Below, piece by piece: positions 6,701 through 44,920 of a stretch of 64,000 nt of DNA (its first letter is position 1; each line of letters starts with the position of its first letter). The position numbers and the translations under genes were made by a program. Under the pieces are notes generated by a model, which was given only the letters and a program-made list of their open reading frames with translations, made no database searches and had not been told where the DNA came from. This DNA comes from Rhizophagus irregularis (Eukaryota), in assembly GCF_026210795.1 (NCBI RefSeq), contig NC_089431.1, positions 1,798,001-1,862,000 on the forward strand. Reading direction: 5' to 3'.

Positions 6701-7298
6701 TTATAAATTTTTATTTTTATTTTTTTTTAAAAAAAATCATATTATTTAAAATTAAAAAAATTAAGGTTTCATATTGCCTTTACATAGCCAATATAAAGTA
6801 GTGATTTGGTAACTAAGACGAAAAAAATGCACTAGCGATCAACCTTATAGTCACATGACAGTCACATGCTAGAAGCAGTTATTCATATAACAACAACATA
6901 TTCAAAATATATTATTCATATATCAACAACATATTCAAAATATATTGTTTGTATATCAGCAACAGTATTCAAAATATGTTATTCATATATCAACAGCATA
7001 TTTGAAATATATTAACAACATATTCAAAATATTCATTATATCATTTGTTTAAGTACATGTTTTAACATACTTTGAAAATATTGTAAAATTATTTTATTCA
7101 TATTACAAAAATATTTACTACACTATATTAGTTTAAGTTTAAATTTCAACATATATTAAAAATATTATAACATTATTTTATTAATATTACAAACATATTG
7201 CGTATATTAAAATATATAGAACATATATATACCATCTGTTAGTAATATGTAGTGATTATGTCTGACATATTTTGTGAAAACCAGAGGTTTCTGCAAAG
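3706..7298. mobile_element. 3.6-kb non-autonomous TIR DNA transposon, 2-bp TSD (TT), probably CMC/CACTA-related
   Basis: Left CTTTGCTGAAACCT...AAAATATG versus right CATATTTT...AGGTTTCTGCAAAG (~33-bp imperfect TIR); subterminal AAAATATG-rich repeats at both ends; interrupts a Sel1 repeat precisely. Confidence 0.9.
6880..7040. repeat. Subterminal tandem repeat (~31-bp unit TATTCATATATCAACAACATATTCAAAATAT, ~5 copies)
   Basis: Read directly from the sequence. Confidence 0.8.
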
Positions 7299-10200
7299 TT
7301 AATTTCATCCTTTCCAATACCAATTCCATTTTCGTAACATAAACCTAAATTATATTGTGCACTAATAATTCCGTTTTCTGCTGCTTTTTGATACCAATTA
7401 AAAGCCACGGCATCATTTTTTGCAATGCCAATTCCATTTTCATAACATAAGCCTAAATTAAATTGTGCATTCGCATTTTTATTTGCTGCTGATTGATACC
7501 AATTAACAGCTTGAGCATAGCTTTTCTCAATACCAATTCCATTTTCATAGAATAAACCTAATTTATATTGTGCATTATTATTATTAAAATTGCTTGCTGC
7601 TTTTTGATACCAATAAAAAGCTTTAGCTTTATTCTTTTCAATACCAATTCCACTTTCATAGCATAAACCTAAATTATATTGTGCATCATTATTTCCATTT
7701 TCCGCAGCTTTTTCGTACCAGTAAAAAGTTTTAACTTCGTCTATTTCAATACCAATTCCATTCTCATAACATAAGCCTAAATTATATTGTGCATCATTAA
7801 TTCCATTTTCTACTGCTTTTTGATACCAATAAAAAGCTTTAGCTTCATCTTTTTCAATACCAATTCCATTCTCATAGCATATACCCAAATTATACTGTGC
7901 ATTTACATTTTGATTTTCTGCTGCTTTTTTATTCCAATAAAAAGATTTAACATTACATTTTTCAACACCAATACCATTTTTATAACATAAACCCAATCTA
8001 TATTGTGCATTACTGTTTTCATTTTCTGCTGCTTTTTGATACCAATAAAAAGCCATAATGTTATCTTCTTTATTAGTGCCAACACCATTTTCCCAAAACA
8101 TGCCTAAATTATATTGTGCATTCTCATTTCTATTTTCTGCTGCTTTTTGATACCAATAAAATGCTTGAAAATTATCTTTTCCAGTACCAATTCCATTCTC
8201 ATAACATAAGCCTAAATTATATTGTGCATCATTAATTCCATTTTCTACTGCTTTTTGATACCAATAAAAAGCTTTTGCTTCATCTTTTTCAGTACCAATT
8301 CCATTTTCATAATATAAACCCAAATTATATTGTGCACCATTAATTCCATTTTCTGCTGCTTTTTGATACCAATAAAATGCTTTAACATTATTTTTTTCAA
8401 TACCAATTCCATTTTCATAACATAAGCATAGATTATATTGTGCACTATTATTTCCATTATCTGCTGCTTTCTGATACCAATAAAATGCTGTTACCTCATT
8501 TTTTTCAATACCAATTCCTTTTTCATAACATAAACCTAAACTATATTGTGCATTTGCATTTTCATTTTTTGCTGCTTTTTGAAACCAATTAAAAGCTGTA
8601 AGATCATTTTTTTCAATACCAATTCCATTTTCATAACATAAACCCAAATTATATTGTGCATCTGCATTTTTATTCGCTGCTGCTTTTTGATACCAATAAA
8701 AAGCTTTAACCTCATCTTTTTCAATACCAATTCCATTTTCGTAACATAAACCCAAATTATATTGCGCACTATTAATTCCGTTTTCTGCTGCTTTTTGATA
8801 CCAATAAAATGCTTTAACATTACTTTTTTCAATACCAATTCCATTTATATAAAAATGACCCAGTTTAATTTGTCCGTCACTACTTTCATTTTCTGCTAAT
8901 TTTTGGTAACAGCAAAAGGCTTTCTCAAAATCTTTTTCAATACCAATTCCATTTTCGTAACATAAACCTAATTTATATTGTGCATCTTGATTTCCATTTG
9001 TTGCAGCAGCTTGATACCAATTAAAAGCCTTAACTTTATCATTAATATTAAATCCTTCACTATAATATAAACTCAAGTTATATTGTATATTTTCATTTTC
9101 ATTTTTTGCTACATTTTGATGACAATAAAAAACTTTATTTTCATTTTTATTAATACCAGTATTATTTTTTGCTTTTTGATACCAATAAGAAGCTTTTTCT
9201 TTATTTTTTTTAGTACCTATTCCATTTTTATAACACATGCCTAATTTATATTGTGCATCTTTATTTTCGTTTTCAGCTGCTTGTTGATACCAATAAAAAG
9301 CCAGACTTACATTTTTTTCAGTACCAATTCCATTTTTATAACATAAACCCAATTTATATTGTGCGTCTTTATTCTCATTTTCTGCTGCTTTTTGATAATA
9401 ATAAAATGCTTTATAATAATCTGATGAAGTACCAATTCCATTTTCATAACATAAACCCAGTCTATATTGTGCATTATTATTTGTTATTGATGCTCTTTGA
9501 TACCAAGGAAAAGCTTCAGTTGTGTTTTTTTTAGTAATACCAATTCCATTTTCATAATATAATCCTAAACTATATTGTGAATTAGTGCTTCCATTTTCAT
9601 AATATAATCCTAAACTATATTGTGAATTAGTGCTTCCATTTTCTACTGCCTTTTGTAGCCAATAAAAAGCTTTTTTCAAATCTTTTTCAATACCAATTCC
9701 ATTTTCATAACATAAACTCAACTCATATTGTGCATTATTCTCACTTTCTGCAGCCTTTTGAAACCAATAAAAAGCTTTAATTTCGTCCTTATCAATATCA
9801 TTTCCATTTTTGAACAATAATCCTAGTTCATATTGTGCATTACTATCCTTACTTTCTGCAGCCTTTTGAAGCCAATAAAAAGCTTTAGCTTTATTTTTTT
9901 TTATCTTGAACCCATTTTCATAATATACACCTAAATCATATTGTGCATTTTTATTGCAATTTAATGCAGCTTTTTGAAGCCAGTAAAAAGCTTTACCCTT
10001 ATCTTTCTCAATTTTAGTTCCATTTTTATACCATAAACTTAAATTATATTGTGCATTACTATTTTCATTTTCTGCTGCTTTTTCATACCAATAAAAAGCT
10101 TTGACCTCATCTTTTTCAATACCTATTCCATTTTCATAACATAAACCCAAACTATATTGTGCATTACTATTTTCATTTTCTGCTGCTTTTTGATACCAAC

Positions 10201-11478
10201 AGAGATCTATAGTTTTACCTTTTTCAATATTTATAATTCCATTTTCATAGCATAAATCCAAACTATATTGCACATTATTATTTTTATTGTCCACAGCTTT
10301 TTGATTCCAATAAAGAGCTTTAGCTTCATTCTTTTCAATACCAATTCCATTTTTATAACACAAACATAAACTATACTGAGCATTATTATTTCCATTTTCT
10401 GCTGCTTTTTGATACCAATAAAAGGCTTTTTCAAAATCTTTTTCAATACCAATTCCATTTTCATAAAATAAACCTAAATTGTATTGTGCATCATTATTTC
10501 CATTTTCTACTGCTATTTGATACCAATAAAAAGCTTTAATTTCATCCTTTTCAATACCAACGCCATTTTCATAGCATAAACCTAAATTATATTGTGCATC
10601 ATCATTTCCATTTTTTGCAGCTTTTCGATACCAATGAAAAGCTTTAGCTTCATTTTTTTCAATACCAATTTCATTCTCATAGCATTGACCTAAATTATAT
10701 TGTGCATCGTTATTTCTATTTTTTGCAGCTTTTCGATACCAGTGAAAAGCTTTATATTTGTTCATATCAATACCGATTCCATTTTCATAACATACGCCTA
10801 AATTATATTGTGCATTTTCATTTCCATTTTCTGCTGCTTTTTCATACCAATAAAAAGCATTTCTTAAGTCTTTTTCATTTTTATAACATAAACTTAAACT
10901 ATATTGAGCATTATTATTTCCATTTTCAGCTGCTTTTTGATACCAATAAAAAGCTTTAATTTTATCCTTTTCAATACTAATTCCATTTTCATAGAATAAA
11001 CCTAAATTATATTGTGCATTATTATTACCGTTTTCTGCTGCTTTCTGATACCGAGAAAAAGCTTTATTTTCATTTCTTTCAATACCAATGCCATTTTCAT
11101 AGCATAAACCTAAATTATATTGTGCATCATTATTTCCATTTTCTGCAGCTCTTTCGTACAAATAAAAAGCTTTAACTACGTCTATTTCAATACCAATTCC
11201 ATACTCATAACATAAACCTAAATTATATTGTGCATCATTATTTCCATTTTCTACTGCTTTTTGATACCAATAAAAAGCTTTAGCTTCATCTTTTTCAATA
11301 CCAATTCCATTCTCGTAGCATTGACCTAAATTATACTGTGCATTATTATTCCCATTTTTTGCTGCTTTTTGGTACCATTTAATGGATAATTTAGACTGAA
11401 ATGTTTTAATCATTTCTAATATAAAAGAAATAAATCTGCTAAGAAAAATTTTTTACAGAAGAACTAGTTACTTCGCAA

Positions 11479-16016: not shown

Positions 16017-16197
16017 CCCTGTAAAAAAAGTCGATCCGTTTTTTATATTCCATCTTTTTTTCCCGTAAAAGGCTCATATTTCCAGAATTAATAACCTTAT
16101 ATGAGTTATATCACGGAATTTATCGAATTATTTACATTTTCCGTGAATGGATCCGTGAAAGGCTCATTTTTACGGAGTTTTTAAATTTTTTATAGGG
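16017..16197 (+). mobile_element. MITE family A copy, TSD TAC
   Basis: CCCTGTAAAAAAAG...TTTTTATAGGG flanked by TAC on both sides. Confidence 0.92.
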
Positions 16198-17007: not shown

Positions 17008-18542
17008 CCCTATAAAAAAATTGGATACGTTTTTTATAAAGTTTTTATACGATTTTTTTTCCTTAGAAATAACGTATCATAATAGGATACGGAAAAATGC
17101 ACAATTCCGTATCACTAAAAATATGGTTTGGATACGGAATTTGCACGGGATTTATATGGAATTTACATGATTTGATCATTGATTTTATCACGAAATTTAT
17201 ACGATTTGGTCACTGAATTTACTATTTGTATTACAGTTTACTATAATTGTATTTATATAAATCTAATTTTACTTTATTAAATTAAATAAAAAATAAAAAA
17301 TAAACAAAGTACAAATACATTATGAAAATTCCCTCCTTATTAAAACCACCTATTGCAACCAAAATTATCTATAAGTTCAGGTTCATTTGGAGTCAAACAA
17401 CCTAAAAGAACAAAAAAAAAAGATTGGAAACAAAACCCCCTCATATAGTATCTGCAATCGTCCAAGTCACCAAAGGTCAGCATTCCTACAAAAAAAGAAA
17501 GAGAACTCCAGAATGTCTGACCTACATAAAAGAAAAGAATTATGAGGCGTCTAATGAAAAAGAAACCAAAACAACAAAATAAAATCCAAAACTGACCTAC
17601 AAAAAAAGAAGACTCTGAAGCAACAAAACTGAAACAACCTACAAAAAGAAAAGAATCTAAACCCAACTTACAAAAAAACAAGAAAATTTGAACTGACCTA
17701 AAAAAAGAAAAAAATCCTGAATCATCCTACAAAAAGAAAAGGACTCCCAAAATGATCTACAAAATAGAAAAAAGAAACTGAATATTCTCACAAAAAAAAA
17801 TCTGCTGGCCTATGAAATTAAATATAAATAAAAAAGAAAGGGGAATAAAGAATAAACCAAAAAAAAATTTAAAAAGAGGGGTAACGAAGTTAGGAAAGTT
17901 AAAAAAAAAATTTTTTTTAAAGGGAGGACGTCAAAGTTAGAAAAATAAAAAATTTTTTATAAAGAGGAAATAGAAATAGAAAGAAGAAATTTTTTTAAAA
18001 AAAAAGAAGAGTGGGAATAAAAGAAAAATTTTTTTTTTAAGGAAGTGACGAAAAAAATTTTTTTTTCAAAGGAGTGACGAAAAAAAAAATTTTTTAAAGT
18101 GAGGTACGAAAAAAAGAATTATTTTTAAAAGGGGGTGACGAAGAAAAAAGAAAAATTTAGAAAAAATAACAAAAATAAGACAAGAGAAAGAGAAAGGAAA
18201 GGAAAGACAGAAAGGAAAGATCGGAAGATCAAACTCATCAAAAGTAAAGTTTATATAAAAAACAAAAAACGTATCATAACAAAACAATAAACAATCATGT
18301 GATCTCGTGTTATGATACGGGATTTTTGTAAATTATCTTCTAAAAATATTAAGTTTAAAAATTCCGTATACATTCCGCATGATTAATTTTTTCCGTATAC
18401 ATTTCTTATACATTAGTTTTTTAAAAAAATGTTCAAAAATGAATTGCTTATTAAATATACGGAATTTGTATACGGAATCTATAGAAACGTACAAAAAATT
18501 TATACAAAACGTATCCTTTCCGTATACATATTTCTTATAGGG
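17008..18542. mobile_element. 1.5-kb non-autonomous CACTA-type element, TSD TGA
   Basis: CCCTATAA...TTATAGGG termini; TGA on both sides; subterminal ATACGG/CCGTAT motifs at both ends. Confidence 0.88.
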
Positions 18543-18736: not shown

Positions 18737-20349
18737 AATTCTTACATCTAAGATAATTCAGGATATGTGCGAATAAGTTACAAATCAAAAATTTTGAAAG
18801 ATTGGGAAGGTTTATTTGTTGAAAAAAAAACAAAAATAAAAAGACTTTTGTGGAGATATATCGATTTTATATTTATATTTTATCGGCGGGAAGCAAATTT
18901 TGAAATGAAATTTGGCCCATCAAAAACATTAGTCGGTGAAAAAGTTTAATATATATAGCCAATATAGGACAATGCATTGCTTGAAGAAGCTTGATATGCT
19001 TGATGAAAGTAAAAAGAGAAGAAAAGAAATTTGTAAAATTAAGTAACCAAAAATGTCAAATCTAAGTGGTTATAAAAAAAGAATTATAAATAGTACTTTT
19101 ATTTCTAACTTAGACAACGCACGATAAAAGCCTTAATTCGCCAATAAAATTACATTCCGTAATCACGTGATAAATCTTTTTTATAAACTTTTTTATTGGA
19201 ATTTTTGGAATTTGACTAAACTTAATATTCCTAAACTAATTAACTACTTGGTGATTTTGCGCTTTACTATTTGCTTGCACACTTCTCTAATTTTTCATTA
19301 ATGGAATCTTTATATATATCGGTAACGAAATATTTGGAGACAATCAACTGAAAGTTCACGATAGTCTTCCAATATGTTTGATAATAAATTTTAATGTTGT
19401 TATTATAACTACTATATTTATTACGTTATTACATTATTTCCATATTGCATTGCAGTCTCCCATGTTCTACATCTTAATCTTATCTTTTCCTTTCCACTTA
19501 GTCTCGTATGACTCGTGTATAACCACATCTTGATAAAATTCATCAATATTCATATTTTCCTCAACTGGAATTCCTTCCCAACCAAAAACTGATTTGGAAT
19601 GATATTCCACATAAACTGTTTTGCTGCAAATGCGAGGACGATTATTTCTTTAAAAAAAAAAAAGCTTTAACGGCGACTAAATAATGATTTAAAATGAATA
19701 ATAATAATTTAAATTCTAAATACACAAACCTTTTTAAAACAGATAAATTGGACTGATCTAGTAATTTTACCATCTAAACTAACTATGATAAATCCTTTTG
19801 CTGCTTTGTTGGGCTTCGACCGGGAGAATAATTTCCTCTCTTACTTGCAACGACAAAAAGAAGAATTTATATAGATGATAAGAGATTAATAGAGCTTTTC
19901 ACCGAATTTATGACCTATGGATAATATAGGATACCCGTTTGAAAATTTTGAGATCCGGATATCCTATTAAATATAATAATTCTAGGAGGATATACGATTA
20001 TTTGTGCGACAGCGACGTTAAATTAAATAAAGGTGATTTAAATAATTTTTATCTTTTTTCATACTTTGTTTAATTTCAAGAGTTAAAAATGAATTTATAA
20101 CGTGAACGTGAAAAATTATGAATCCTTACAATAATCATGTAAAGATGGGTTGGATATATTTATATGCCCTATGAAAAAAGCCTGTGTGATTTTTGTTGAA
20201 AAAACATCCAATTAAATTCACTATGATTTCTGTATATTTGACCATACAATAATTGTGCTAAAAATTGCAATAAATCACACAATAGTTGTATGGCAATCAT
20301 ACAATAATCATCCAATTTATGACCTGATTTTATATAATTATTGTCTAAT

Positions 20350-20560
20350 TTTTGAGCCAAATTTTGGGCCGAATTTTAGGAATTATTCTGGGCCGAATTT
20401 AGAAATTATTGTGAGCCGAATTTTAGGAATTATTAGGAATTATTATGGCCGAATTTAGGAATTATTGTGGGCCGAATTATTAAGAATTATTATGGCAAAT
20501 TTAGGAATTATTGTAAGCCGAATTTAGGAATTATTGTGGGCCGAATTTTAGGAATTATGA
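20350..20560. repeat. Left subterminal tandem array (GCCGAATTT(T)AGGAATTATT, ~20-bp unit, ~9 copies)
   Basis: Read directly from the sequence. Confidence 0.85.
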
Positions 20561-21912
20561 TTACAGTAAGTTAAAATTTGGTCAGTAACGATTAACGACA
20601 AGCAAATTTATAAAGTGAAATTATGGATTTTTATTAATTTAATATACAAAATAAAACACTATATTTGATATGAATTATAAATGTAGAAAACTATAAAAAA
20701 ATATAAATATATATATATAATAATTCATAAATAATATACTATCGCTGTATTAGATATAAACTATAAATTAAAACTATAAATGTATAAAGAAAATAAAATC
20801 AAATATTAAAGAAAGTAAAGTAAATTATTGGTATAAGTAAATTATTAATATTAAAAATAAAAAAGTATGAAGTTAGTAAAGAAAGCAAAATTAGAATTAG
20901 TAAGTAGTATGGAAAGTAAATTGTTAGCATTTGTTAGCGTTAGTAATAATAAAAAAAAGAAAGTAAAATAAATTATTGTAAGTAAATTATTAATATTAAA
21001 AATAAAAAAGTATGAAGTTAATAAAGAAAGCAAATTAGTAAGTAGTATGGAAAGTAATTGTTAGCGTTTGTTAGCGTTAGTAATAATAAAAAAAAGTATA
21101 AAGTTAGTGAAAAAAGCAAGTTAGTAATTGAAATGTAAAAAAGTTAGAAAATAAATAAAAGGATAAAAAAATAAATTTTCTTACCGAAAAGAAAGTTTGA
21201 AGAAAAAAAGTTTGAAGAAAAGAAAGTTTGAAGAAAAGAAAGTTTGAAGAAAAAAAGTTTGAAGAAAAAAAAGGTTAAAAAAAATAAACAAATATTTTCT
21301 GCGTAGTGAAAAAAGTAAGTTAGTAATGTAAAAAAGTTAAAAAATAAATTCTGCGTAGTGAAAAAAGTAAGTTAGTAATGTAAAAAAGTTAAAAAATAAA
21401 TAAACGAAAAGAAAAGTTTGAAGAAAAAAGAAAAAAAGTTTGAAGAAATAAAAAAATAAACAAATATTTTCTGCGTTATATTTATTATTTATTTTGATGA
21501 TCAGATCACGTGGTATAATATAATTTAATTTTAATTGGACGATCAGATCACGTGTATTATATACATAATTTTAATTGGACAATTTCTTTTATTTTCCAAA
21601 CTAACCGGATAAGTAGTGACACAAAATTTTAACTAACGAAAAATGAACTTTTAAACTTTAATTTTGTATTAGTTACAAAATTTCATTACAAAAGCAATAC
21701 GACAACACAAAAATTTACTTTATTTAAAATATATATGCATATTATGTATGTTATCTCTAATTTATGAAATAAAATAAAATATTAGTATTTGTAACTAATT
21801 AATTTCAAATTAAATAACTTACTTTATTATTTTCGTTATAATCTAAAATAAAAATAAAAATTAATTGATTATTATAAAAAATTTTTTGTAATATAAAATG
21901 AAAAAATAAATA

Positions 21913-23062
21913 TTAATTATTACCTTTTCGCGGTTGATTGGAAATCCGCCCAGATTTTTTTCTTTCATTTTTTTTCTTCCCGCTCTTTTCGCTGGCATTT
22001 GTATTGCCAACGTCTGTACTATTATCATTTTTTTTTTTTTCCGCTCTTTCCGCTGACATTTGTATTGGTATTGTCAACGTCTGTATTATTATCATTTTTT
22101 TTCTTTCTGCTCTTTCCGCTGACATTTGTATTGGTATCGTCAACGTCTGTATTATTATCGTTATTATCAGACTTCAAGAAAAGTTTAAAAGAGATATAAC
22201 TGAAGTTAAAAATATGTTTTTAACAAAATGCTTATACTATATATATTATACCTTATCTGATAAATCATCTGCAGTTCCACTACTACTAATGACCACTTTG
22301 TTTTTAATTTTATCTCTAGTGATCACCGATTTATTCTTTTTTAAAATAACTTCCGTTTCCTTCTTCTTTAGTTTTTTTTGGTGGGCACCTTTTATAAAAT
22401 TCAAAAATTAATACGTATTTATTTTTATAAATAAATATAATTCAAAAGATGAAATTATTATTTACGTTTATTGTTCATCGAGCGGCGAAATAATTCTTTG
22501 ATAGCCCAATCTCCTGTTGTTTTGGGAAAATGACTATTATTCCCTTTGAACTGAAAAAAAAATTTTGTTAAATGTATTATAAATGTATTGATTTAAAGTA
22601 TGATTAATTTACAATATACTTACCTTCTCGATAATTTTTAATATTGCTCTCCTCTCCTGCTTTTCCCAGGACGTTTCAACATCGATATACGCTTCAATTA
22701 GGTCACGTATACTTGACTAGTAAAATATATAAAAGTTAAATCCTAAAATGATAATACATGAATTATATCAACAATTACATATTTATATATTACAAACTTT
22801 GTAACCATTAAATTCCTCATTAGTCAGGTTTAAAATTTTTGCAATATTAATGTAAGCACCGGTTGGTTTGGAAATTGATACAGTTTCATCCACCACTTTT
22901 TCTAGAATTCTCTATATTTATAATTAAAACTTAATGTTAAAAAGAGATCAAACTGCAATATAAATGCTAAAATTAACTTACATTTTGTTGAACAGGAAGA
23001 TCTGACGATTTTTTTGATTGATTAAGAACGGTTATTTTATTTAATTTTTTGTTAGTAGCCAT
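21913..23062 (-). CDS. Transposon passenger gene A: uncharacterised helical domain + Lys/Asp/Asn-rich repetitive tail (apparent +1 frameshift in the poly-T at 22028-22040)
   Basis: In-phase GT-AG exons 23062-22982, 22911-22798, 22716-22624, 22550-22466, 22388-22252, 22171-~21923 give MATNKK...SIRDLIEAYIDVETSWEKQERRAILKIIEKFKGNNSHFPKTTGDWAIKELFRRSMNNKRAHQKK...; 3' end uncertain. Confidence 0.7.
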
Positions 23063-23544
23063 AACAAAAAAATCCAAATGTAATGAAGAGAAATTCAGAT
23101 AGAACGAAGAAAACGAAGAAAAAAAGAATGAATTAAATTTCTCTGAATTTATATTAACTTGACGAGGTTTTTTTTTTAAAAAAAAAGGTAGAAACATTAG
23201 CGATTTTTCCTAAAAAGGAAAGATAAACGAATAATTTTTTTTTTAAAAAAAAAGGCAGAAACATCATCGACATTTCTTAAAAAAGAAAAATACAACAATC
23301 AAATTTTTTTTCTAAAAAAAATTGATAGCGATATTGTGTACAAAAAAGGAATATAAAAGGGTTTTTATAACATCTATTTTTAGCTATTTCAACAGTTACG
23401 GTAGAGTTTTTTAAATAAAGAATAATAAAATGAATAAACGATACAAATTATTATAACAAATTATTATAATCGTGCGTGACTTAATAAAAATATGAAGATT
23501 TCACACTAGATTTAGTATTAATATTTTTTGGGAAGTTGTTTCCT

Positions 23545-23576
<32 letters not shown>

Positions 23577-23897
23577 GTAGAAACATTATCGATTTTCTTA
23601 AGATTTTTTAAAAAAAATTGACAATATTTGACAGCAATATTGTATACAAAAAAGGAATACAAAAGTGACAATATTTGACAGTAATATTGTATACAAAAAA
23701 AAAATACAAAAAGGGGTTTTTCATCATAAGACTTCAACCGAAGACCAAAGTTTCTTAAAGCGATCTTTTTTTTTTTAAAAAAAAAGAACAATCTTTTTTT
23801 TAAAAAATGACAGCATTCGAAGTACAAAAAAGGAATACAAAGGAGGTTTTCATATCTATTTTAAAATTACACAGCCATTTTATCATAAGATTTTAAC

Positions 23898-24099
23898 CCC
23901 TATAAAAAATTTTTATCCGAATTTTTCCATTATTTCTCCGTGTCTTTCATGTCTTCCGTAAAAATTCCGTGAAAATGATACATTCACGGATATCGAGATG
24001 AAAATTTCCATGATTTAAAGCTATTATTAATTCTATTAAAATGATACATTCATAAAAAAAAACATGGAAAGATAAAATACGGATCATATTTTTACAGGA
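23898..24099 (-). mobile_element. Diverged family-A-related MITE nested inside the large CACTA element
   Basis: CCCTATAAAAAATTTTTATCCG...CATTCACGGA...TTTTTACAGG resembles the reverse complement of family A. Confidence 0.65.
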
Positions 24100-24672
24100 A
24101 TGTAATACTTATTTAAAATAATAGTTATTTAATTTGATGAATAATTGTTGACGTAAAAATATATTTTTTTTGACGACAAAAAAATAGTAATAGTATTACT
24201 GTAGATTAAGTGTTAGATCCTCGAACGAGGATAATTTTTTTTAAGATGATTAATCCGTCATTAATCGCAACGAAATAAATGGGTGTGTAATACTGGTGTA
24301 AAGATGTATGTAAAGAGATATGTATAATGCTTTTTTTTAAAAAAAAAAATAGGCAGAAACATTATCAATTGTTCTTAAAAAAAAAAATCTTTTTTTTTAA
24401 TACAATATTCGAAGTACAAAAAAGGAATACAAAAGGAGTTTTCATCTATTTTTAAATTACACAGCCATCTTAAAACGACAGGAATATTTGTGTACAAATT
24501 ATTCCGAATAAAGATAAATCAAAATTTTTTAGCTTATAAAATCTGAAACATAAATTTTATGCAGTGTGAAAAAAAAAAAGTATTTTAGTTTTTAATTTTT
24601 ATAAATCTTGTATAGTGTAAAAAAAAAGTGTTTATTTTTTATAAATTGTGAAAAAAAAGTATTGGAAAAAAA

Positions 24673-27600
24673 ATGTCGAATAATAAAGTATTATGTATAT
24701 GTTCCAAATGTAAAAAAAAAGGATCAGATAATATTGGTAAATATGTGCATCCTACTACCAAATGGAGACATATTAAAAATGCAAAAAAGAATTATAATTT
24801 TAGCGACAACGATGATGATAGCGACGACGACGATAGCGATAATGATGATAATAATAATAATAATAACGATCATGAGGACGATAATAACGATAACGATAAT
24901 GATGATAATAATAATGACCACGACAAAGACCACGATGACGATAACGATCACGATGACGACCACGATAATGATGGCGATAATGATGATAATAATAACGACT
25001 ACGACGATAATAATCATGATGATAATGATGTAGAATATAAACAGTAAGTATTAAGGAGAATATTTCTGTTATTCGTTAACTAATAATGATTATTAAATGT
25101 TTTATATTATATTTTAATTGTAATGATGATAGGAGGAATGAATTTGATAATAGATCTTCAAGATCTCCTACTCCCGTTCTCATGGTAATTGATGATGATT
25201 GCTATGATGACAATCAAGAACACCATGACAATCGTGACAATTCTGATGAAAAAACAGAATCATCCACTGCAACTGAATCTGAATCTTATGAAAGTTTATA
25301 TGATTCTTTTGATGATAATAATACGTTTGAAGTATTACAAAAAGGACTATATAGTAGCGATAATGAATCATCTGATGACGGTATTAATTTAACAGAAGGT
25401 AATATACGCAATATTTATTTATTTATTTAAAATTATTTATTATTAATGCAAATACATATTATTTGTAGGGTCTAATATTGTAGGGTCTAATATTAATAGT
25501 ATTAATGATGAAGTTGCTAGAGGTTTACGTCTTCTTGAAGTAAAAACTCGACGAAATATTACTGATGCAGCCTTTAAAGAAATTGTTACTGCAGCTAGTG
25601 GTAATTTTACAAGTCAATATACACTAATAAAAACACTTAAAAATATAGTTCCTATTAAACCAATTTGGGTTGATATGTGCATAAATTCATGCTGCGCTTT
25701 TACTGGTAATTTGGAAACATTAAATAAATGTACCTATTGTAAAGCTGAACGTTATCAAGAAGGAGGACGACCAAGAGCACAAGTAGCATATTTTTCAATT
25801 CAGAATCGATTTAAAATTCAATATCAAGATCCAACACGCGCAAAACAATTACGTTATCGTTCTGAATATATTACCAGAGAAGATAATGGTGCTATTGGCG
25901 ATGTATTTGACGGCTCACAATATAAATATCTATCCCAAGAGGGATATTTTCAAGACGATCGTGATATTGCACTTTTAGGTTCTGTTGACGGTTATCAACT
26001 ATTCAAACAAAAATGTGATGATTGTTGGATAGTTTTATTTATTAATGCTAATTTGCCACCCCATCAACGTGTAAAAAAAGAAAATTTACTTATTACTTCA
26101 ATCATCCCGGGTCCTAAAGCTCCAAAAAATTTTAATTCTTTTATGAAACCAATAGTTGAAGAATTATGCTTATTAAATGGTAATTTTAATTACATACATT
26201 ATGATAAAACTTAATGATAAAAAAAAAATATATTAAAAATAATTGTAAATTTGTAAATTTGTAGATGGTGTTGAATGCTATGATGGTGCTACGAATGAGA
26301 ATTTCCTCTTAAAAGTTACGGTACTTTCCTGGTCTGGAGATACTCCCGGATTGTCAAAACTTGCTTGCTTAACTGGACATAATTCATACATGGCATGTCG
26401 TTACTGTGATCTTCGTGGGATATATAATAATCATGTATATTATCCTACAACACCACCACCATCAATTGAAACATATAAAACTTATAATCCATCAGATTTA
26501 CCAAAAAGAACTCATAGAGATTATATGATAAGAATTGAACAAATAACGACAATACCGCCATCAAGAACACGCGATACATTAATTTCTGATTTAGGTAAAT
26601 AATAAATCTATTGCAACATAATTTTTTTTACTATAAAATTAATAATTATTATTTTGAAATAGGTGTTACAGGACGTAGTGTTTTATTAGAAATAGAAACA
26701 ACTCGATTTCCTACATGTTTTCCAATAGATATTATGCATTTGTTTTATGAAAACATCGCATTATATATGTTAAAACATTGGATGGGTTGTTTTTTTAAAG
26801 ATTCTATTCTTAATGATCAGCCATATGTAATTAACAACAAACAATGGACTGAGATTGGGATTGAAATGGAAACCGTAAGAAAATCCATTCCAACTGATTT
26901 TGGTCGACCACCACGAAATATCTTACATCACCATAATGGTTACAAAGCAGAGGAGTGGGCTTCATGGATAACCTTATATTCTTTACCTTTATTAAAAGAT
27001 CGTTTGCCGGCAAATTATCTTAAAGGTTGGTCCTTTTTTGTTAAAGCTGTTCAGCTTTGTCAAAAACGAGTATTATCTTTACATGATCAAGAAGAAATAA
27101 GGAAATTATTATTGCTATTTTATCAACATTATGAACGGTATATATATTACAACATTTATTTTATTTATTGAATTATTGTTCTTTTATTAAAATAATATTA
27201 TTTTTAGTTATTATTATCAGTTTTTGGCTGCCCGACTAAGTGTAATGAAAGTATGCTTTCATTATATTTTACATGTTGCTGATAGTATTCAGGATACTGG
27301 ACCATGTTGGTCAACATGGCAGTTTCCTATGGAACGTACTTGTGGAATGTTACAACCGCTAGCAAAATCACGCCTCCATCCATATAAAAATCTAACAAAC
27401 AATGTATATTTGTTAGAATTATTTAATAATTTGTGTTATTTTAGAAAATTTTATGACCAGATCTTTCCTCCTATATCTGATAAAAAATATAAAGAGCACT
27501 TGGTTTATACAAATGAGAATTATGAAGAAGAATTTCAATGGCCTTCTAAACCATATACTCTTACATTCCAAGAAGTTAAAAAAATAAAAGATCATTTATG

Positions 27601-28203
27601 TGTAATAGATGATCGTGCATCAGAAATGCGATTAAATGTATGTATTATTTTATTTTATGTTATTTTATTTTCAATTTTAAAATTAAATATTGACTAATAT
27701 TTACATTTTTTACATTTTTTAGGATTTTGAAACCAACGGAACAAAATTTGGTCGTTTAATAACTTCCGATGGTCGAGTAATTGGGTCAGAATGGATACGT
27801 AGAAATAAAGACTGGGCACGAATTAATTACACTGTTTTGGTTAGTATTTAATGCAATATAATCATTTATTAATTTTGTAAGTTTTATTTAATAATTTTCA
27901 TTTTAGACCCGTTTAGAAATTGACAAATGGGCTCACTTACCAAGTGCAATCCCAGAATTCGTAACTAAATCATTTTACGCCCAGGTTAATTATTATTTTT
28001 TATACGGGTATATGGATCAGAAAATAATGCTAGCGAACGTAACATGGACAAATGAAGTTAATGAAGATTCATTAGGTACAACTTCCTTTGTAGGTGATGG
28101 TTCTACACAATTTATTGATGTTACTGCAATCAATAGATGTGTAGGTTTTATGAAATTGGGACGTAAAACATATATTATTGATAAGGAATGTATGGAAGAA
28201 TAG
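24673..28203 (+). CDS. CACTA/EnSpm (Tnp2/Transposase_21-like) DDE transposase, 8 exons, 998 aa, apparently intact
   Basis: Exons 24673-25043, 25133-25398, 25469-26179, 26265-26594, 26663-27137, 27208-27637, 27723-27839, 27907-28203 sum to 2997 nt with no internal stop. Motifs DMCINSC, DVFDG, SVDGYQ, IIPGPKAP, SGDTPG, DIMH, YKAEEW, H..LH, GP....WQFPMER. Confidence 0.92.
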
Positions 28204-28794
28204 AAATAAACAATTTAATTAAAAATTGTCAAATAATCTGAAATTGTATTACGCGCGATGTGTATGTCGGATTTCTTAAATAAAACTTTCTTAAATAAAA
28301 CTGTAGGGAAAATTCTTATTAGTTCTTTTTGTATTGTAAATTTTATAACGCCCTATATTATACGTAATTTCAATCTAATAAAATTAGAAATAAACGTCTG
28401 CCTTACTTGCCGTTAAAATCTGAATAAGTATTTGCAATAGTTCTCAAATAAGTATAGAATTCTTTACCGATATCTGGACTAATAACAGACGTATTTATTA
28501 TAACAGACTGCATAGACGACGTATTGTAATGTATTATAATAACGTTTATAAATAAAATTGTTTATAGTTAAATATAACAATTAGGCAGGCATTCATTTGG
28601 CCAATTTAGCCTTTATAATAAAAATCGCGTTAATATTATAGCAATGATAATAATATAAAAATTTTTTTTATTAAAATGAATAATATTAATTAATTAATTA
28701 TTAAAACGTTAATATATACTAAGAAATAAGCAATAATTATAATAATATGAAATTAATTAATTAACATCAAGCCTCGCAATTTAATTAACATTAA

Positions 28795-29625
28795 TTAATC
28801 ATCGTCGATTTCCCAAATTGCGAGGCTTGCGAGGCTTGATTGAGAACCTCCTTCTTCTTCCTCAAATATTTGAACCACTTCCTGTTCCTGATCCTGCTGC
28901 TGCTGTTGCTGTTGCCTTTGTTGATCCTGCTGTTGCTGTTGCTGTTGCCTTTGTAATTTTTGATCCTGATCCTCCTGATTCTGATCTTGATCCTGCTGCT
29001 GTTGTTGTTGGCTAAGTAATTTTTTTTGATCCTGATCTTGATCCTGATTCTGATCCCGATCCCGATCCCGATACTGCCGATTCTGATCCCGCTGCTGTTG
29101 CTGTTGTTGTGTTTGTGACCGTTGCCGTTGCAATTGTGTTTGTGACCGTTGGAATTGCAATCCTAAAAATATTATTTAGAATTTAATATTATTTAGAATT
29201 TAAAAAAGAAATTAAAACACTTTACAAGATGATTCAAAAGTTAATACTTGGTTTTTTCCAAAACTTATTTCTGAATTCTAAATAATATCTTTCCCCGTTT
29301 CTTATTATTTTTCCCCTCGGATCCTTAATAATAGATAATTCCATACTCTAAAGATTATAAATTAGTAAATTAGCCTACATTTGAAGAGATAATGACAATA
29401 TTGTATAATATTATATTGAATATTTACCCGGCAATCCTTTACAATACCATGGAATTTTTCGCTCGCTTGACGTCCAGTATAAACTGTTTTGAATCTTTGG
29501 TTGATTTTTCCAGCGGTTGAGATCCACCAAGCTCGCTTGCAATTACCACCGCCAAGCGAGTGGTAATGTGCATTACCTTCTTTCCTTTCATCGATGAGCA
29601 TTCTTACTTCGTCGTCGGTCCACAT
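28795..29625 (-). CDS. Transposon passenger gene B: Myb/SANT (trihelix-like) DNA-binding domain + Gln/Asp-rich tail, ~221 aa
   Basis: WTDDEVRMLI...WW..TAGKIN.....TGRQ..EKF motif; exons 29625-29428, 29347-29248, 29162-28795 in phase (666 nt). Confidence 0.75.
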
Positions 29626-29897
29626 AATGTTAATTGAAATTGAAATATTTTTTTTTTTTTGAAGAAAAAAAAATTTTGAATTAATTTTTTTTAAAAAAAA
29701 AATGTAAAATGGAAACGAATGAATTTGATTTAATTTTTTTTTTCATAAATTAAATAATACTTACGTTTTAATGATGTAATAAATATCAATAAATTAAAAA
29801 AAGTCTAATAAATAATATTACTTATTAATGATGTAATGAATTACTACGCTGATTGATCAAATTGAATTACTTATGTTTATGTGTAATTCTGCAATTT

Positions 29898-30016
29898 TAC
29901 CCGCGACTCACCCGTGACTCACCCGCAATAATATAATACTTATAATATACTGAACACCGCGACTCACCCGCGACTCACCCGCGACTCACCCGTGACTCAC
30001 CCCGTGACTCACTCGC
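29898..30016. repeat. GC-rich 11-bp repeats (ACTCACCCG(C/T)G) between divergent passenger genes B and C
   Basis: About 8 copies in two clusters in otherwise very AT-rich DNA. Confidence 0.8.
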
Positions 30017-30831
30017 AACATTACTAAACACTTTATAACCATCTCTCTATAAAAAAAATTACACAAATTTGAACCTTTTTATCAATTGAAAAAAAGAATT
30101 TAATCACTTATTACTTTATCAACAGCGGCCTCAATTTCGAATGGTATGTGATTACAAAATGATGATCTAATACTCAACAGCGGCCGCCTCAATTCAAATA
30201 TATTCGAATGGTATGTGATAACAAAATGATGAATTTACCTTAAGTGCTCGCTAGACATTTCAATGATTTTGGTTTAGTTTTTAACAAAATGTAATACTTC
30301 ATAACTAAATGTACAAGCATTTGACCTGACCACTGGTCTACCATTATTTTTTTGCGTCATTGATTTTTTAAATGCGCCATTTATTATTTTTGCGCTACTA
30401 TTTATTTCACAATTGGATTTCTTATATGACCGATATGCAAAATTGCATGTGATATTTTAATAAACGTTTTGCACTATATGTGTATTCTGCAGTTAGCCCA
30501 TTATTTTATTTATATGGTTAAATTTATAATACTAGATTATCAATTATTACGCCAAAATTCTAAAAAATACTATGTACGTATATATATATAATGGAATATT
30601 CCTTAATTTAGAAATTTACCATGATTTTAAAATTTTTTCCGTACAAAAAAAATTTTTTTCCATGATTTTTTACTAAAAAAAAAATTCCCCTAATTCCATG
30701 ATTTTTAATTTTTTTTTACCTCCTTAAAAAAAAAAATAAAATAAAATAAAATGGATTTTATTTCAAGTCTCTCACCTTTCTCGCGTCTCTCACCTTCTTC
30801 GTATCTCTCACCTCGCTTCTAATTCTAAAAA

Positions 30832-30846
30832 ATGAATACCAATAAT

Positions 30847-30919
<73 letters not shown>

Positions 30920-31806
30920 TTCTATTTGCTCATCAAACAACAATGCAGGAGTTTAAAGAAGGAACTAACTCTATTCATAAAACGACGCTTAACGCGCTTA
31001 TTAATAACTTGCAGTAAGTAAAATAATTAATAAAAGAAATAAATAAAGTAAAAAAATAGATAAATAAATAAATAAATAAAAGAAAAATCTTTAATTATAA
31101 TCTTATAATCTTAAAATACATTTTTTGTTTTTTTGACGACTTGTAATAAACAGACCACCAGTATTTGGAAGTGGGAGAACTTCTACGTTTAGTTCGTTCG
31201 GAGTACCTTCGTTTGGAGCACCCTCGTTCGGAGTGCCTTCGTTTGGAGCACCCTCGTTCGGAGTACCTTCGCCTTCGTTTGGAGCACCCTCGTTCGGAGT
31301 ACCCTCGTTCGGAGTACCTTCGTTCGGAGTATCCTCGTTCGGAATTGGTAATAAAATTAATAAAATTTTTTTTTATATATATATATATTTAACTTTAAAA
31401 CAACTTCTATTATATTATTATAGCTGCGGCAAGAGCAGCAACAATAGCAGCAACGACCACAGCAGCAACAACAACACCAACACCAACCGCACCAACAACA
31501 ACAAGTGCACTAATACTAGCTGCACCAACACTACCAACCACATCAACAACCACATCAACAACCGCATCAACAACCGCATCAACAACACCACCAATACCAA
31601 CCGCATTAACAACTACATCAACAACCGCATTAACAACCGCATCAACAACCGCATCAACAACACCACCAATACCAACCGCATTAACAACTACTGCTGCATC
31701 AACCGCAACAACAGCAGCTATTGCAACAACAACAATAGCAGCAGCAACAACAACAACATATCACCAGTCATCAATTCCATCATACTGGCCTTTACAGCAG
31801 CAGCAG

Positions 31807-31853
<47 letters not shown>

Positions 31854-31857
31854 GCGG

Positions 31858-31919
<62 letters not shown>

Positions 31920-32247
31920 GCAGCAGCAACGGCAACGGCAGCAGCAACGGCCAACGGCAGCAGCAACGCCAGCAGCGTATGCAGCGCCGACAGCGCGAAT
32001 GTTTTGAATCAACGGGTAATAAAATTTATTAATTTAATGTAAAAGTAAATTTTATAAATTATTTAATAATAAAATTTTTAAATTAATAAAAATAGGAGCT
32101 GTTTGCTATTATTGTAATGATAATCATTACATCTTCGCTTGTACTCAAATACCGAAAGAGTACAAAGGCCGTTGCGTTAATTGCTGGGCGGACGATCATA
32201 TGGTTATGAGTTGTAATAATGTTAAAATAAGAGAGCCTTGGCTCTAA
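30832..32247 (+). CDS. Transposon passenger gene C: poly-Asn, 11 FG (8 PSFG) repeats, Thr/Ala-rich linker, polyQ, two CCHC zinc knuckles (~372 aa if the single extra C at ~31951 is removed)
   Basis: Exons 30832-31013, 31154-31347, 31424-32015, 32096-32247; last exon reads GAVCYYCNDNHYIFAC...CVNCWADDHMVMSC...EPWL*. Confidence 0.72.
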
Positions 32248-32339
32248 ATTTTTTAATTTTTTAACTTTTTTCTAATCTTTTTAATTTTTTAAGTTAGATT
32301 AAAAATTATTTTCTGAATCATGTTATGTTCTCGAACATT

Positions 32340-32560
32340 TTTCCGATTGGGGTCGGATAATAAAAGATTAATTAAAATATTCGATTGGGGTCGAATATTT
32401 TTCTTTTTCCGATTGGGGTCGGATATTAATCTTTTAAAAAATGTTCGATTACTATTTTTTTTTGTCCGATCGATTGGGGTCGAATTAATTTTTGATTACT
32501 ATTTTTTTTTGTCCGAGTCGGATTAATTTTTTTAAAAAACGTTCGATTGGGGTCGAACCA
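32340..32560. repeat. Dispersed (T/C)CGATTGGGGTCG repeats (~5-7 copies) downstream of gene C
   Basis: Read directly from the sequence. Confidence 0.75.
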
Positions 32561-34472
32561 ATATAATAAAAAAAAATTTTTTTATAAAATTATATATTTA
32601 TTTTCATATATATTATTTTTAATATTTTTTATTTATTTTTAATATTTTTTATTTATTAATATTATTAATTCGCAATTCGTAAAAAAAGTAAACATGAAAA
32701 AATTTACATTACATTTATATAATGATCGGTAGGAATAGTAGTGATAATAAAATGCGTTAATATTCGTTAATACCAATAATTAAATGCGTTAATACTAAGA
32801 ATCTCTAATCGTTTTAGATCTAAACATGAATAACGACGATACTTGATGTAAAACTTGTTTCTATTAGTTAGTAAATAGTATGTACATGAGAGGTAACAGC
32901 AATCCGAAAGGCGCGTTACTTTATAAACTGGTAAACTTTATAGAATAAAATAACAGCTAAAGGAAACGAAAATAATGAGATATTACTAAGGTATACAAGG
33001 TATAGGTATCATGTATCATTCAGCGATATTAAAACAGCACCAAGTTATGTATGATAAGTTTATACGAAGTTTATATCAACGACGAAGTTTAATTTTCTAG
33101 ATCTTTTATTAAAAATTGGAATAATAATGAATTTCTAAGTATTTTTCTATTTATTATTTTATTTAAGAATTTTTTTTATAATAAAACTTGCTTAGTAATA
33201 CAGTATATAATAAAATCAATAAAATCAATAAAATAAGTTTCATATTGCATAAAAAATTTTTTTATTTAATTAAATTTTTTTATTTAATTAATTATATTAA
33301 TACAGTATATTTATTATAAAAGATTATTAAGGAAAGGTAAAAAAATTAAGTAAATTTAGAATGTGACGAAGGTGGATAAGGAAATAACGCGAGCGTGATG
33401 GTAGTTGCAGATGGTATGTGTATATGGTGGCGGCGGCGGTTATTGTGGTGGAGGAGGAAGTAATTGTAGTAAAGGAAGTGATCGAAAAAGTAATTATAGA
33501 GACGGAAAAGGTGATCGTGATGAAGCGATTATTGTGATGTTTGCAGATATTTTCGGTTTTACTATAATATAAAAACTTGATACACGATTATAATATGGTT
33601 GAATTACGGTTAAATGGGTTAAATGATATTAAATGTATATTATAGAAACGCGGTTCTGTTATAATAAAATAACTTGATCGCTAATATTATTATAAATTAT
33701 AAGTTAATTTAAAATAAATACATTGTAGGTAAACAGTCATATATATTACTTTTTAAATACATTCACAATTCACAATTAAAGTAAAATGATCTCCCATCGT
33801 ACAATTGTAACGATTGTACTAAAATAAACGTATATTTCGTATATTTTCAAATATTGTACAATAATCGCACAATTTTTATATCCTAAACTTTTATTGCACA
33901 AAAGTTGAACGTTTTCTGTATACTTAATTTAAGTTTATTTTCAATTGTACAAAGATCGCACATTTTCAATACACTATAAAATCGACATGGCCATTTTTAT
34001 CCAAAAAACTGCAATAATTGTATGATTTCCGCACGGACTTGAACAAATATTGCACAAAAATTGGATGATCTTTTTTCATAGGGATGTGATATACGTGTAT
34101 TATTGGATGTAATATTTAAGACACAAGTTGAATCTGTTCAGATTTTAAAGCCAGTTTCGAATATTTTTTAATTAACATATAATAAATATTAAGGTTTACG
34201 ATTTTTGATCAATGATCCTATTCAAAATGACTTTTTTAATACCTTTTGAGTAGCGTCTCCAATATGTAGATATGGCATGATACTGATTTAATAGCTAAAG
34301 TTAACTCTCTCATCTCAAAATCTGGTGTAATAAAGTGGCATGTGATACCAAGAAATCCTAGCTTATTGCAAGAAGTCCAAAGGTCGCAGGTTGGTGAAAC
34401 TGAATTTGAATTTTCATGGATATATTGCTTTCAAAGTTTCATTTAATGCATTAATAAAACGATGGAGGAGAT

Positions 34473-34617
34473 CCTCTATAAAAAAATTTTATCCATTATT
34501 TCTATTTCTGTAAAAACTCCGTAAAATGATCCTTTCACCGTTTCACGTATCCATTCACGGAAAATGTAAATTATTCAATAAATTCCGTGATATAAGGTTA
34601 TTACTTTTTTTATAGGG
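34473..34617 (-). mobile_element. MITE family A copy, internally deleted
   Basis: Shares ATCCATTCACGGAAAATGTAA...TTCCGTGATATAAGG core; ends TTTTTTATAGGG. Confidence 0.75.
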
Positions 34618-35863
34618 AGATAAAGCGATTAAAAATCTAAAATAAGCCATTCAAAGAGAGGTGCTTCCAAATATTTTTGTCGATCTTGTTGTGGAGGTAA
34701 ATCTGATATATTTGGTATGAAGGTTAAAATATCATCCGAACTGCGAAACGAACGTTTTAAAGATGATGTAGCTGTTAAAGGTATAAAATGTTCATAAATT
34801 TTATGCTTTCATACATACCGGTTAAATAATATTGCCAATTGAACCTGATGTTTCAACTTTTGCAGCACAAAGTTTACCCTAATGTTTGATTACGCCCAAA
34901 TACAAATTTTTTTTGGATCTGTTGAATGATTTTTTTCTTTGCTCCGATTATATATTCAACTGTAGAGTTTCAAACCTCTATTGTTTTTGACTTGAACCTT
35001 TATTTAATTTCCTAGTCTTTCAAATAAGTTTATGTTAAGCTTCAACATTTCTTCAGTAACTATTCGCATCCGGTAATAGCCGATTCCTAGATATTTTTGG
35101 CGTTTAGTCAAAACCGCTCTAGTTCAACTGAAGAAAATTTTGGGTCTGTGAACCGATTATGTGTCGATCTTCAAGTCTTTTTCTGGAATATTATCATTCT
35201 ACACAGTGAATGTTCTTTTGAAATTCTATAAGTTAACATATTTGGAAGTGATATACTCTAGAATTTGTTAATAAGTCTTCCTTTTGGAAGTGTTTCTGCA
35301 TAAAGTTTTGCACGTTGATCATTATATTTATATATTTAGTCTAGAATAATCTTGGCAGATCCGGTTAATCGGTTAAAATTATCCGGAATACAATGTAGGA
35401 TAATCCGAATTAATTTTAGGATATTATTCGTTCAAGAAAAGTTCTATTCGCTGAACACAACATCAACTAATTACACTTGATTTTGTATTCATAAAATTCA
35501 TAAATGATTTTCCAAATTAATACAAACAAAGAAGATTGAAATTCTATAACAGGAATGGTGCTTGGCATTGAACACACGGAAATATACTCCAATCCGCCAT
35601 TTTGTACCCTAGTATAATTATTGTTTAGCTACCAATTCGTAGTTTTGTACCGTCTAACACTACATTTTATCTCGGATCTTAAAAGTGAGGGACGTTTGAA
35701 AGAATGTTTCAAGAATGTGACACGTGCGTAAAGACAAATATGTATATAGAAATCATCATGTGATAACATTTTTTGATTCTATTATAAAAGCAGCAGATAA
35801 TTTAACGAATTTTATCACTATTGAATTTTGAAATTTCAACTTGATAAGTAATATATAACAATA

Positions 35864-43575: not shown

Positions 43576-44920
43576 AACAAGTGGGAAAAAATGGTGAGGG
43601 TAAAAAAGAGGAAAAATCGCAACAATAATGCCAGTTACTTACATAGGACAAGCTTTAAGAAGCGAGATCAGAAGTGACCATCATTGCAGGTGAGTAGGTT
43701 TGGATGTTGAGACGAAGGTTACCTAGTCTCCGTTATTCCGTAGTTGCGATAAAGTGGTCATGAGCATAATGGTGGTCGAGGTATACCACTTTGGTCACTA
43801 CCGTATGTATGGTCACTACAAGTATACCATACAATCACCATCTGTATGGTCACCTCATAGAAACTATATGGTGCTGCAGAGTCACTTACCCACTTTAGCT
43901 TCGCCAAACGCTTGCTTAGGCTGGTCCCAACATTCACATTGTATATTTGTAGACGTATCCATTGTTTTCATATTGAACAAGTGGAAAAAAATGGTGAAGA
44001 TAAAAAAAAAGAGGAAAAATCGCAACAATAATGCCAATTACTTACGTAGACAAGCTTTAAGAAGCGAGATCAGAATTTACCATCATCGCAGGTGAGTAGG
44101 TTTGGATGTTGAGACGAAGGTTACCTAGTCTCCGTTATTCCGTAGTTGCGATAAGGTGGTCGTGAGCATAAGGGTAGCCGAGGTATACCACTTTGGTCAC
44201 TACCGTATGTATGGTCACTACAAGTATACCATACAACCACCATCTGTATGGTCAATTCATAGAAACTATACGGTTCTGCAGAGTCACTTACCCACTTTAG
44301 CTTCGCCAAACGCTTACTTAGGCTGGTCCTAACACTCACATTGTATATTTGTAGACATATCCATTGTTTTCATATTGAACAAGTGGAAAAAAATGGTGAA
44401 GATAAAAAAAGAGGAAAAATCGCCAATTACTTACGTAGACAAGCTTTAAGAACTATGGTTCTGGCGTTTTCTTTTAACTTTTTTTACATAAAAAACACTG
44501 AAACTATGGTTCTGGCATTTTTTTTTAATTTTTTTTTACATAAAAATGCCGGAACTATGGGTTTTGGCATTTTCTTTTATTTTTTTTTACATAAAAACGC
44601 CAGTACTATGGTCCCGGCGTTTTAGTAGGTTTGGATGTTGAGACGAAGGTTACCTAGTCTCCGTTATTCCGTAGTTGCGATAAGGTGGTCATGAGCATAA
44701 GGGTGGCCGAGGTATGGTATACCACTTTGGTCACTACCGTATGTATGGTCACTACAAGTATACCATACAACCACCATCTGTATGGTCACTTCATAGAAAA
44801 CTATATGGTGCTGCAGAGTCAACTTACCCACTTTAGCTTCGCCAAACGCTTACTTAGGCTGGTCCTAACACCACATTGTATATTTGTAGACGTATGATTT
44901 ATGCCCATTGTTTTCATATA
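43576..44920. repeat. Tandem array of three ~400-bp relatively GC-rich units; the third carries four ~50-bp hairpin-type repeats (44451-44622)
   Basis: Units start at 43576, 43976 and 44378 with near-identical sequence. Confidence 0.9.

Follow-up and report, generated by a model that had tools for sequence, protein, structure and literature searches.

Does a single transposon account for 13.9 kb of a 64,000-nucleotide stretch of the Rhizophagus irregularis genome (contig NC_089431.1, positions 1,798,001 to 1,862,000; hereafter the window), and, if so, to which superfamily does it belong, where did its additional genes come from and how recently did it arrive? An earlier note, made from the sequence alone, had described a CACTA transposon here, with an intact transposase and three passenger genes, which we call A, B and C. 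Our analysis favors, with a probability of about 0.72, a multi-copy EnSpm (CMC) transposon of R. irregularis at 20167..34083 with CCC ends that encodes three accessory genes beside an intact transposase. The element is likely autonomous and very recently inserted, A is likely TnpA-like, and B likely derives, together with its promoter, from a hAT element.

Termini, transposase and superfamily

The element is bounded by a 14-bp terminal inverted repeat (TIR), CCCTATGAAAAAAG, with a perfect inverted copy at the other end (Table 1), as the earlier note had described, and this sequence was found at no further site within the window. The proposed ATG target-site duplication (TSD) is equally exact. 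Because a chance 3-bp match occurs at about 3 in 100 in the AT-rich DNA here, we took related CCCT-TIR pairs of the window as a control, counting only pairs with both ends paired in the window and leaving out, as degenerate or ambiguous, the end-like sites near 34474-34617, 59957-60139 and 62028-62198, plus 23898. A 3-bp direct flank is present in six of the seven pairs (CTA, TAC, TGA, ATG, ATT and CTA), the seventh carrying TTT/TTG; when the element itself is set aside, five of six pairs have such a flank (p ~9e-8 at a per-site chance of 0.027). The 3-bp ATG duplication exceeds chance. Just inside the left end lies an array of 23-bp units for which we found no counterpart at the element's right end, and short ACAAT-type words occur at both ends, a count that stands without a control set for comparison.

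The transposase gene model also withstood inspection: eight exons, separated by seven GT-AG introns of 67-89 nt, splice to 998 aa without an internal stop, and an alternative acceptor yields 993 aa. In the profile search that had been suggested, exon 3 matched Transposase_21 (PF02992) with an E value of 9e-13 and 48.3 bits, above the Pfam cutoff of 28.6, while exon 4 matched at 1e-5 and exon 6 gave a weak match to DUF4218. By motif pattern, read without alignment to reference transposases, we place D386, D475, C494xxC497, H736xxxH740 and E760, an order that agrees with the description of the EnSpm group, in which motifs of the forms C(2)C and H(3-4)H fall after the second D and before the E of a DDE triad (PMC12730594). 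Given the family and the TSDs, the transposase would excise the 13.9-kb unit at its TIRs and reinsert it with a 3-bp stagger, in cut-and-paste fashion.

A Transposase_21 transposase, short TIRs and a TSD of 2-3 bp are among the features of EnSpm (CMC) elements, and all are found here (14 bp and 3 bp for the latter two). The termini read 5'-CCCTA rather than the 5'-CACTA/CACTG of plant-type CACTA elements, and the original CACTA label is therefore not retained; CCC termini are known for animal EnSpm members (PMC1636069).

Three other assignments were ruled out. Plavaka elements terminate in TGT..ACA or CATCA..TGATG (PMC12730594); here the termini are CCC and no Plavaka family appeared among the Pfam matches at E <=0.1. 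PIF/Harbinger was rejected since the transposase is of the Transposase_21 type and not DDE_Tnp_4/Plant_tran, the Myb-like partner being the sole resemblance. Pack-CACTA was rejected since the 998-aa transposase is intact and B can be traced to hAT elements.

Copies, recency of insertion and expression

Rhizophagus irregularis accounts for 11 of 11 matches of A exon 2 and for 17 of the 18 matches of B exon 1. A metagenome contig of 9985 nt (L001) aligns to window positions 24288-34083, where it keeps the transposase-B-C order, at 95% identity over 24288-29711 and 89% over 30402-34083, and it ends in the same right TIR on a different flank; this second copy is thus known in part, from the transposase through B and C to the right TIR. 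For A, we read its neighborhood from gene numbers, a proxy for DNA adjacency. Among the matches listed, a B entry lies at most two numbers away at 8 of 10 A loci of the OCT59/UZO gene series (016277/8, 028769/8, 003529/30, 020462/3, 011514/16, 007876/7, 008423/2 and UZO17176/7), and in the GBC series B stands at n+2 for seven of eight A entries. By gene number, the A-B pairing persists across two B subfamilies and several assemblies. Sequencing run X12 was the source of contig depths: 11.2 and 13.6 for flank contigs, 114.6 for A, 109-129.6 for the transposase, 80.7 for the transposase end into B and 57.8 for the end of C, so that the element contigs are approximately 4-12x deeper than the left-flank contigs in this one DNA run, where depth is not a copy number. 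Other copies sharing the genes, whose absence the earlier note had named as a refutation, were therefore found, for B and C by DNA (L001) and for A by gene numbering and depth. A multi-copy, young, four-gene EnSpm-type element is supported; of the earlier description as young, possibly active and four-gene, youth and gene content stood, whereas activity is deduced rather than seen. Samples X20 and X22 contain a left end related to 20164-20229 (6 differences) on one shared different flank, which represents a family member at another locus.

The nearly identical culture behind X12 also bears on the age of the insertion. Its reads contain 93% of sampled words of 25400-35300 and, among the matches listed, its transposase contigs (2.5 kb) and flank contigs (1.15 kb) show 0 differences to the window. 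One 1116-nt contig, whose orientation was checked against overlapping neighbor contigs, has 0 differences to 19551-20166 and then continues for 500 letters foreign to the element, departing from the window exactly at 20166/20167, right after the left ATG. The earlier note had proposed a search for an empty site with a single ATG; the contig leaves at the TSD as such a site would, but the joint is deduced from this departure rather than seen. These data suggest that the window carries an insertion which the X12 culture lacks, and that insertion at this site was likely very recent.

Spliced transcripts come from close copies in other samples, not from the window copy. X20 is recorded as poly(A) RNA, and X18 was taken as RNA by guess, backed by its splicing. 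An X18 contig covers transposase exons 6-8 of a 97-99% identical copy with introns 6 and 7 removed, contigs of both X18 and X20 lack B intron 1 and end at the intron-2 donor, and a further X20 contig, with 7 differences over 84 nt, ends at the donor of C exon 1. Transposase introns 6-7 and B intron 1 are thus spliced as predicted in these close copies.

A real element might nevertheless be an old insertion, or belong to a family that is wholly silenced and immobile, with the X12 flank contig diverging for another reason. The unseen joint would permit this, as would two frameshifts in the window copy, and CpG methylation and small RNA are described as acting on transposable elements in R. irregularis (PMC8647823). 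The perfect TIRs and TSD, the absence of differences from X12, identical A proteins on five contigs and the spliced transposase RNA argue in the other direction, and we regard an old or silent element as unlikely.

Accessory genes and their origin

The additional genes lie as previously laid out, with A (minus) divergent from the transposase (plus) and B (minus) divergent from C (plus). Three spliced genes do exist beside the transposase and B is intact at 221 aa, but A and C are frameshifted in the window copy. Their description as passengers does not fit well, as A is likely a TnpA-like partner and B looks captured from hAT rather than taken as host cargo. The competing view is that the EnSpm element is real while A, B and C, taken up from the host as genes or fragments, are of no use to it, in the manner of plant CACTA elements that capture gene fragments (PMC8978399). 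The frame breaks in A and C, and the distant relatives of A in other Mucoromycota, count in favor of this passive-cargo view; against it stand the persistent A-B pairing described above and the distribution of B and the selection acting on it, which are presented below. Overall, passive cargo appears rather improbable.

In the window, A encodes 218 aa and ends at an early stop (22027-22025) that follows 13 consecutive A. The copies in databases have 260 aa and agree with 216-217 of the 218 residues, one such protein being identical on five contigs, and the window copy loses only its low-complexity tail. The X12 contig across A aligns with one gap and has one base fewer than the window. The protein is a member of a small fungal family of helical proteins and has a helical core at approximately aa 40-150. 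Judging from its position, A is more likely a TnpA-like partner of the transposase than a passenger. With slightly better than even odds, A would be expressed from the promoter region that it has in common with the transposase, bind the subterminal repeats and aid synapsis. This promoter region also contains a MITE-like piece (miniature inverted-repeat transposable element; 23898-24098) of high depth in X12 and without a clear TSD.

Gene C encodes an N-run, a short helix, FG repeats, a T-rich segment, a Q-run and two CCHC-like knuckles. The FG repeats and the zinc knuckle noted earlier are both encoded, but the window copy stops before the knuckles: the frame is lost near 31950, and a stop follows at 32005-32007 after 319 aa. 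The L001 copy is open for 328 aa, through the knuckle exon, and the alignment of the X12 contig across the end of C ceases at 31955. The gene A truncation and the gene C frame break may be private to the window copy or may be assembly errors; either fits. The dN/dS ratio is 0.27 for exon 1 (p 0.027) and 0.33 for exon 2 (p 0.052), and no origin was found for C. Its low-complexity sequence and CCHC knuckles might bind nucleic acid (RNA or single-stranded DNA), the most doubtful of the functions considered here. Near the right end of the element, a GC-richer stretch (33330-33590) holds an 86-codon minus-strand open frame with no evident start and is 99% conserved in L001.

Gene B has a Myb/SANT-like N-terminus and a Q-rich tail of a kind typical of activators; its paralog P0018 matches Myb_DNA-bind_4 at an E value of 0.002, under the Pfam cutoff. 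Seven metagenome loci carry a B homolog, of which one is EnSpm (L001), four are hAT-linked (L002-L004, representing one element, and L007) and two (L005 and L006) were assigned to neither, a distribution at odds with passive host cargo. In L004, a hAT transposase (DUF659, E 2e-19; Dimer_Tnp_hAT, E 6e-7) lies directly upstream of the B homolog and is read in the same direction. Two further contigs, L002 and L003, overlap L004 (99.85% over 675 nt) and terminate in an 18-bp perfect inverted copy of its left end. Joined across samples, L004 71-3982 and L002/L003 form a hAT element of approximately 4.6 kb in which a Myb-like B is the second gene and which has 18-bp TIRs and subterminal repeats of the TTTCGAC type; its two ends lie on different contigs, and L002 terminates 2 nt past the TIR. 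In L007, a decayed hAT C-terminus is followed by the start of B.

The window retains a corresponding arrangement upstream of B. Compared with the L007 hAT gene, positions 30057-30122 give a local score of 81 against a best of 38 in 500 shuffles, and the equivalent comparison for L001 gives 92 against 33. Between this remnant and B lie 11-bp repeats that also occur upstream of the B homologs in L001, L004 and L005 and, in degenerate form, in L007, and which are thus common to EnSpm and hAT contexts. Because hAT elements contain B homologs and the window still has, upstream of B, the end of a hAT transposase gene, B was likely taken, with its promoter, from a hAT element.

That B is instead a nested, deletion-bearing hAT inserted into the EnSpm element and carried passively would account for transposase tail, intergenic repeats and B standing in the same order as in hAT elements. 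Neither the 18-bp hAT TIR (at <=4 mismatches) nor the hAT subterminal heptamer was found in the window element or L001, and a scan for TIRs with an 8-bp TSD around B returned two AT-run artefacts and no credible TSD, on which grounds B looks captured rather than nested. Diverged EnSpm-borne B variants (dS 1.2) are, moreover, each intact. A nested hAT is therefore very unlikely.

We compared substitution rates as the earlier note had recommended, and found a dN/dS of about 0.1 among B homologs and of about 0.3 in the C exons. The B homologs inside hAT elements are 80-91% identical to B with a dN/dS of ~0.1, and B exons 1-2 show a dN/dS of 0.09-0.14 against five homologs at dS 1.2-1.5. Purifying selection thus acts strongly on B among its transposon-borne variants, which again speaks against passive cargo. 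Between the window and L001, dS is 0.006 for the transposase, 1.2 for B exons 1-2 (dN/dS 0.10) and 0.3-0.4 for C exons 1-2 (dN/dS ~0.3). As the values for B and C are far above that of the transposase, the central B-C promoter cassette has been exchanged between old subfamilies with its coding capacity kept. The B of L001 is 91% identical to a hAT-borne B and 81% identical to that of the window, and a single EnSpm clade in the B tree is not rejected (p-AU 0.345).

B might be a transposon-encoded transcription factor that sustains expression of the element, possibly via the repeats in its own promoter; we rate this a reasonable conjecture at somewhat less than even odds, and it would explain purifying selection on B in two superfamilies. 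The TGACTCA core of three of these repeats is what we take to be a Gcn4/AP-1 site, which makes a putative stress induction of B possible. A 5' splice donor also lies upstream on the minus strand (29764-29607), the first downstream AG falling within B codons 6-7. One X18 contig is spliced at this joint, with 27 letters on its short side that match the L001-type exon end; the joint would remove the MWTDDE start of B and may produce a regulatory isoform.

A broader proposal, which we hold only tentatively and consider less probable than not, is that the Myb/SANT cassette (gene plus repeat-bearing promoter) is a module passed between superfamilies of Glomeromycota DNA transposons, switching on or shielding its carrier, and that the 13.9-kb EnSpm element is transposing now in a clonal Rhizophagus lineage. 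The leftover hAT transposase tail makes a direction from hAT to EnSpm the most sensible one.

Table 1. Positions of the element's features in the window.
Feature	Position	Strand	Details and basis
Left TSD, ATG	20164..20166	+	ATG at both flanks; 3-bp TSD rule in related pairs
Left TIR, 14 bp, CCC-type	20167..20180	+	Perfect inverted match to right TIR
Left subterminal array, 23-bp unit, ~8 copies	20361..20558	+	Core GGCCGAAT
Gene A	21822..23062 (3' end approximate)	-	Exons 23062-22982, 22911-22798, 22716-22624, 22550-22466, 22388-22252, 22171-21924, then 21842-
EnSpm transposase, 8 exons, 998 aa, stop-free	24673..28203	+	Pfam match, splicing, motif pattern, RNA contig
Gene B, 221 aa	28795..29625	-	Exons 29625-29428, 29347-29248, 29162-28795; Myb/SANT-like N-terminus, Q-rich tail
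Seven 11-bp repeats upstream of B	29899..30016	-	Cores: 3 TGACTCA, 4 CGACTCA
hAT transposase remnant (last codons, stop, 3' flank)	30057..30122	-	85% over 66 nt to L007
Gene C	30832..32247	+	Exons 30832-31013, 31154-31347, 31424-32015, 32096-32247
Right TIR, 14 bp	34070..34083	-	Identical TIR on another flank in L001
Right TSD, ATG	34084..34086	+	Matches left ATG

Neighboring repeats, related systems and significance

Several further repeats surround the element. At 17008-18542 lies an element of 1535 bp that has TIRs of the CCCTATAA type and is flanked by a TGA duplication; it reaches a bin depth of ~4900 in X12 against 11-14 for unique flank contigs, and on account of this very high depth is likely a high-copy non-autonomous relative. 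MITE-like elements of 160-310 bp with CCCT(A/G)TAAAAA ends lie at 334-497, 16017-16197, 46821-47005, 53895-54203, 54440-54679, 59957-60139, 62028-62198 and 34474-34617; they mostly have 3-bp TSDs and were possibly mobilised by a transposase of the element's kind. Immediately to the right of the element, a decayed open reading frame (34239-34430, minus) contains a DLWTS...LGITCHF motif that is presumably hAT-like, although Pfam gave no match. Long arrays of 108-bp repeats (36-aa units) at 2600-3700, 7200-11400, 52400-53200 and 56200-57700 are, we assume, Sel1-like repeats of Rhizophagus kinase-type genes, and 43647-44348 is a direct duplication with 402-bp spacing and 95% identity.

Among known systems, SmTRC1, an EnSpm/CACTA element of the animal/fungal CCC-terminus type (DeMarco et al. 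2006, PMC1636069), likewise combines Transposase_21, CCC TIRs and spliced transcripts with a fast-evolving second protein proposed as a TnpA analog; it differs in having a 2-bp TSD and alternatively spliced open reading frames of one unit, in place of a 3-bp TSD and four genes in two divergent pairs. For TET/JBP enzymes, multi-gene fungal DNA transposons have been described in which intact accessory genes without termini of their own were passed between superfamilies, including EnSpm and hAT (there hAT7), and were proposed to serve the transposon (Kojima 2025, PMC12730594); the present case involves a Myb/SANT-like gene, a Glomeromycotina host and a hAT tail hinting at a direction from hAT to EnSpm. 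PIF/Harbinger (Nuwa) elements also pair a Myb/SANT-like protein with a DDE transposase and a 3-bp TSD (PMC12730594), whereas here the transposase is Transposase_21/DUF4218, B lies tail-to-tail with it, and B is also found in hAT. Pack-CACTA and plant CACTA elements similarly hold extra coding sequence between CACTA-type ends, but there the extra sequence is mostly host-gene fragments (PMC8978399) and Pack elements are non-autonomous, in contrast to the intact transposase and full spliced genes seen here, one of them traced to another transposon.

CMC-EnSpm elements of R. irregularis are known to be young, recently expanded and transcribed (PMC8647823, PMC11075540, PMC5751038), and full consensus sequences of its CMC-EnSpm and Plavaka families have been manually curated (PMC11075540, PMC8647823). 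[quoted passage not shown] (PMC8647823), in the part available, report young, expressed elements but were unable to validate full-length active copies. Our literature search found neither a Myb gene common to hAT and EnSpm nor an account of the 13.9-kb element, and the curated R. irregularis libraries may contain the family.

Some multi-copy "hypothetical" genes of R. irregularis are thus transposon genes, with A and B each occurring about ten times in one assembly among the matches listed. Given the probable hAT origin of B, a Myb-like protein would join the TET/JBP enzymes among the accessory genes swapped between superfamilies of DNA transposons, here with a rare hint of the direction. It is an open question whether arbuscular mycorrhizal fungi still have mobile transposons that create variation; with its ends known exactly, its transposase intact and an empty site proposed, this element is a candidate for testing live transposition in such a root-symbiotic fungus. 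If the tentative proposal of a mobile cassette and current transposition is true, the locus would offer a live transposon of such a fungus that is open to direct testing.

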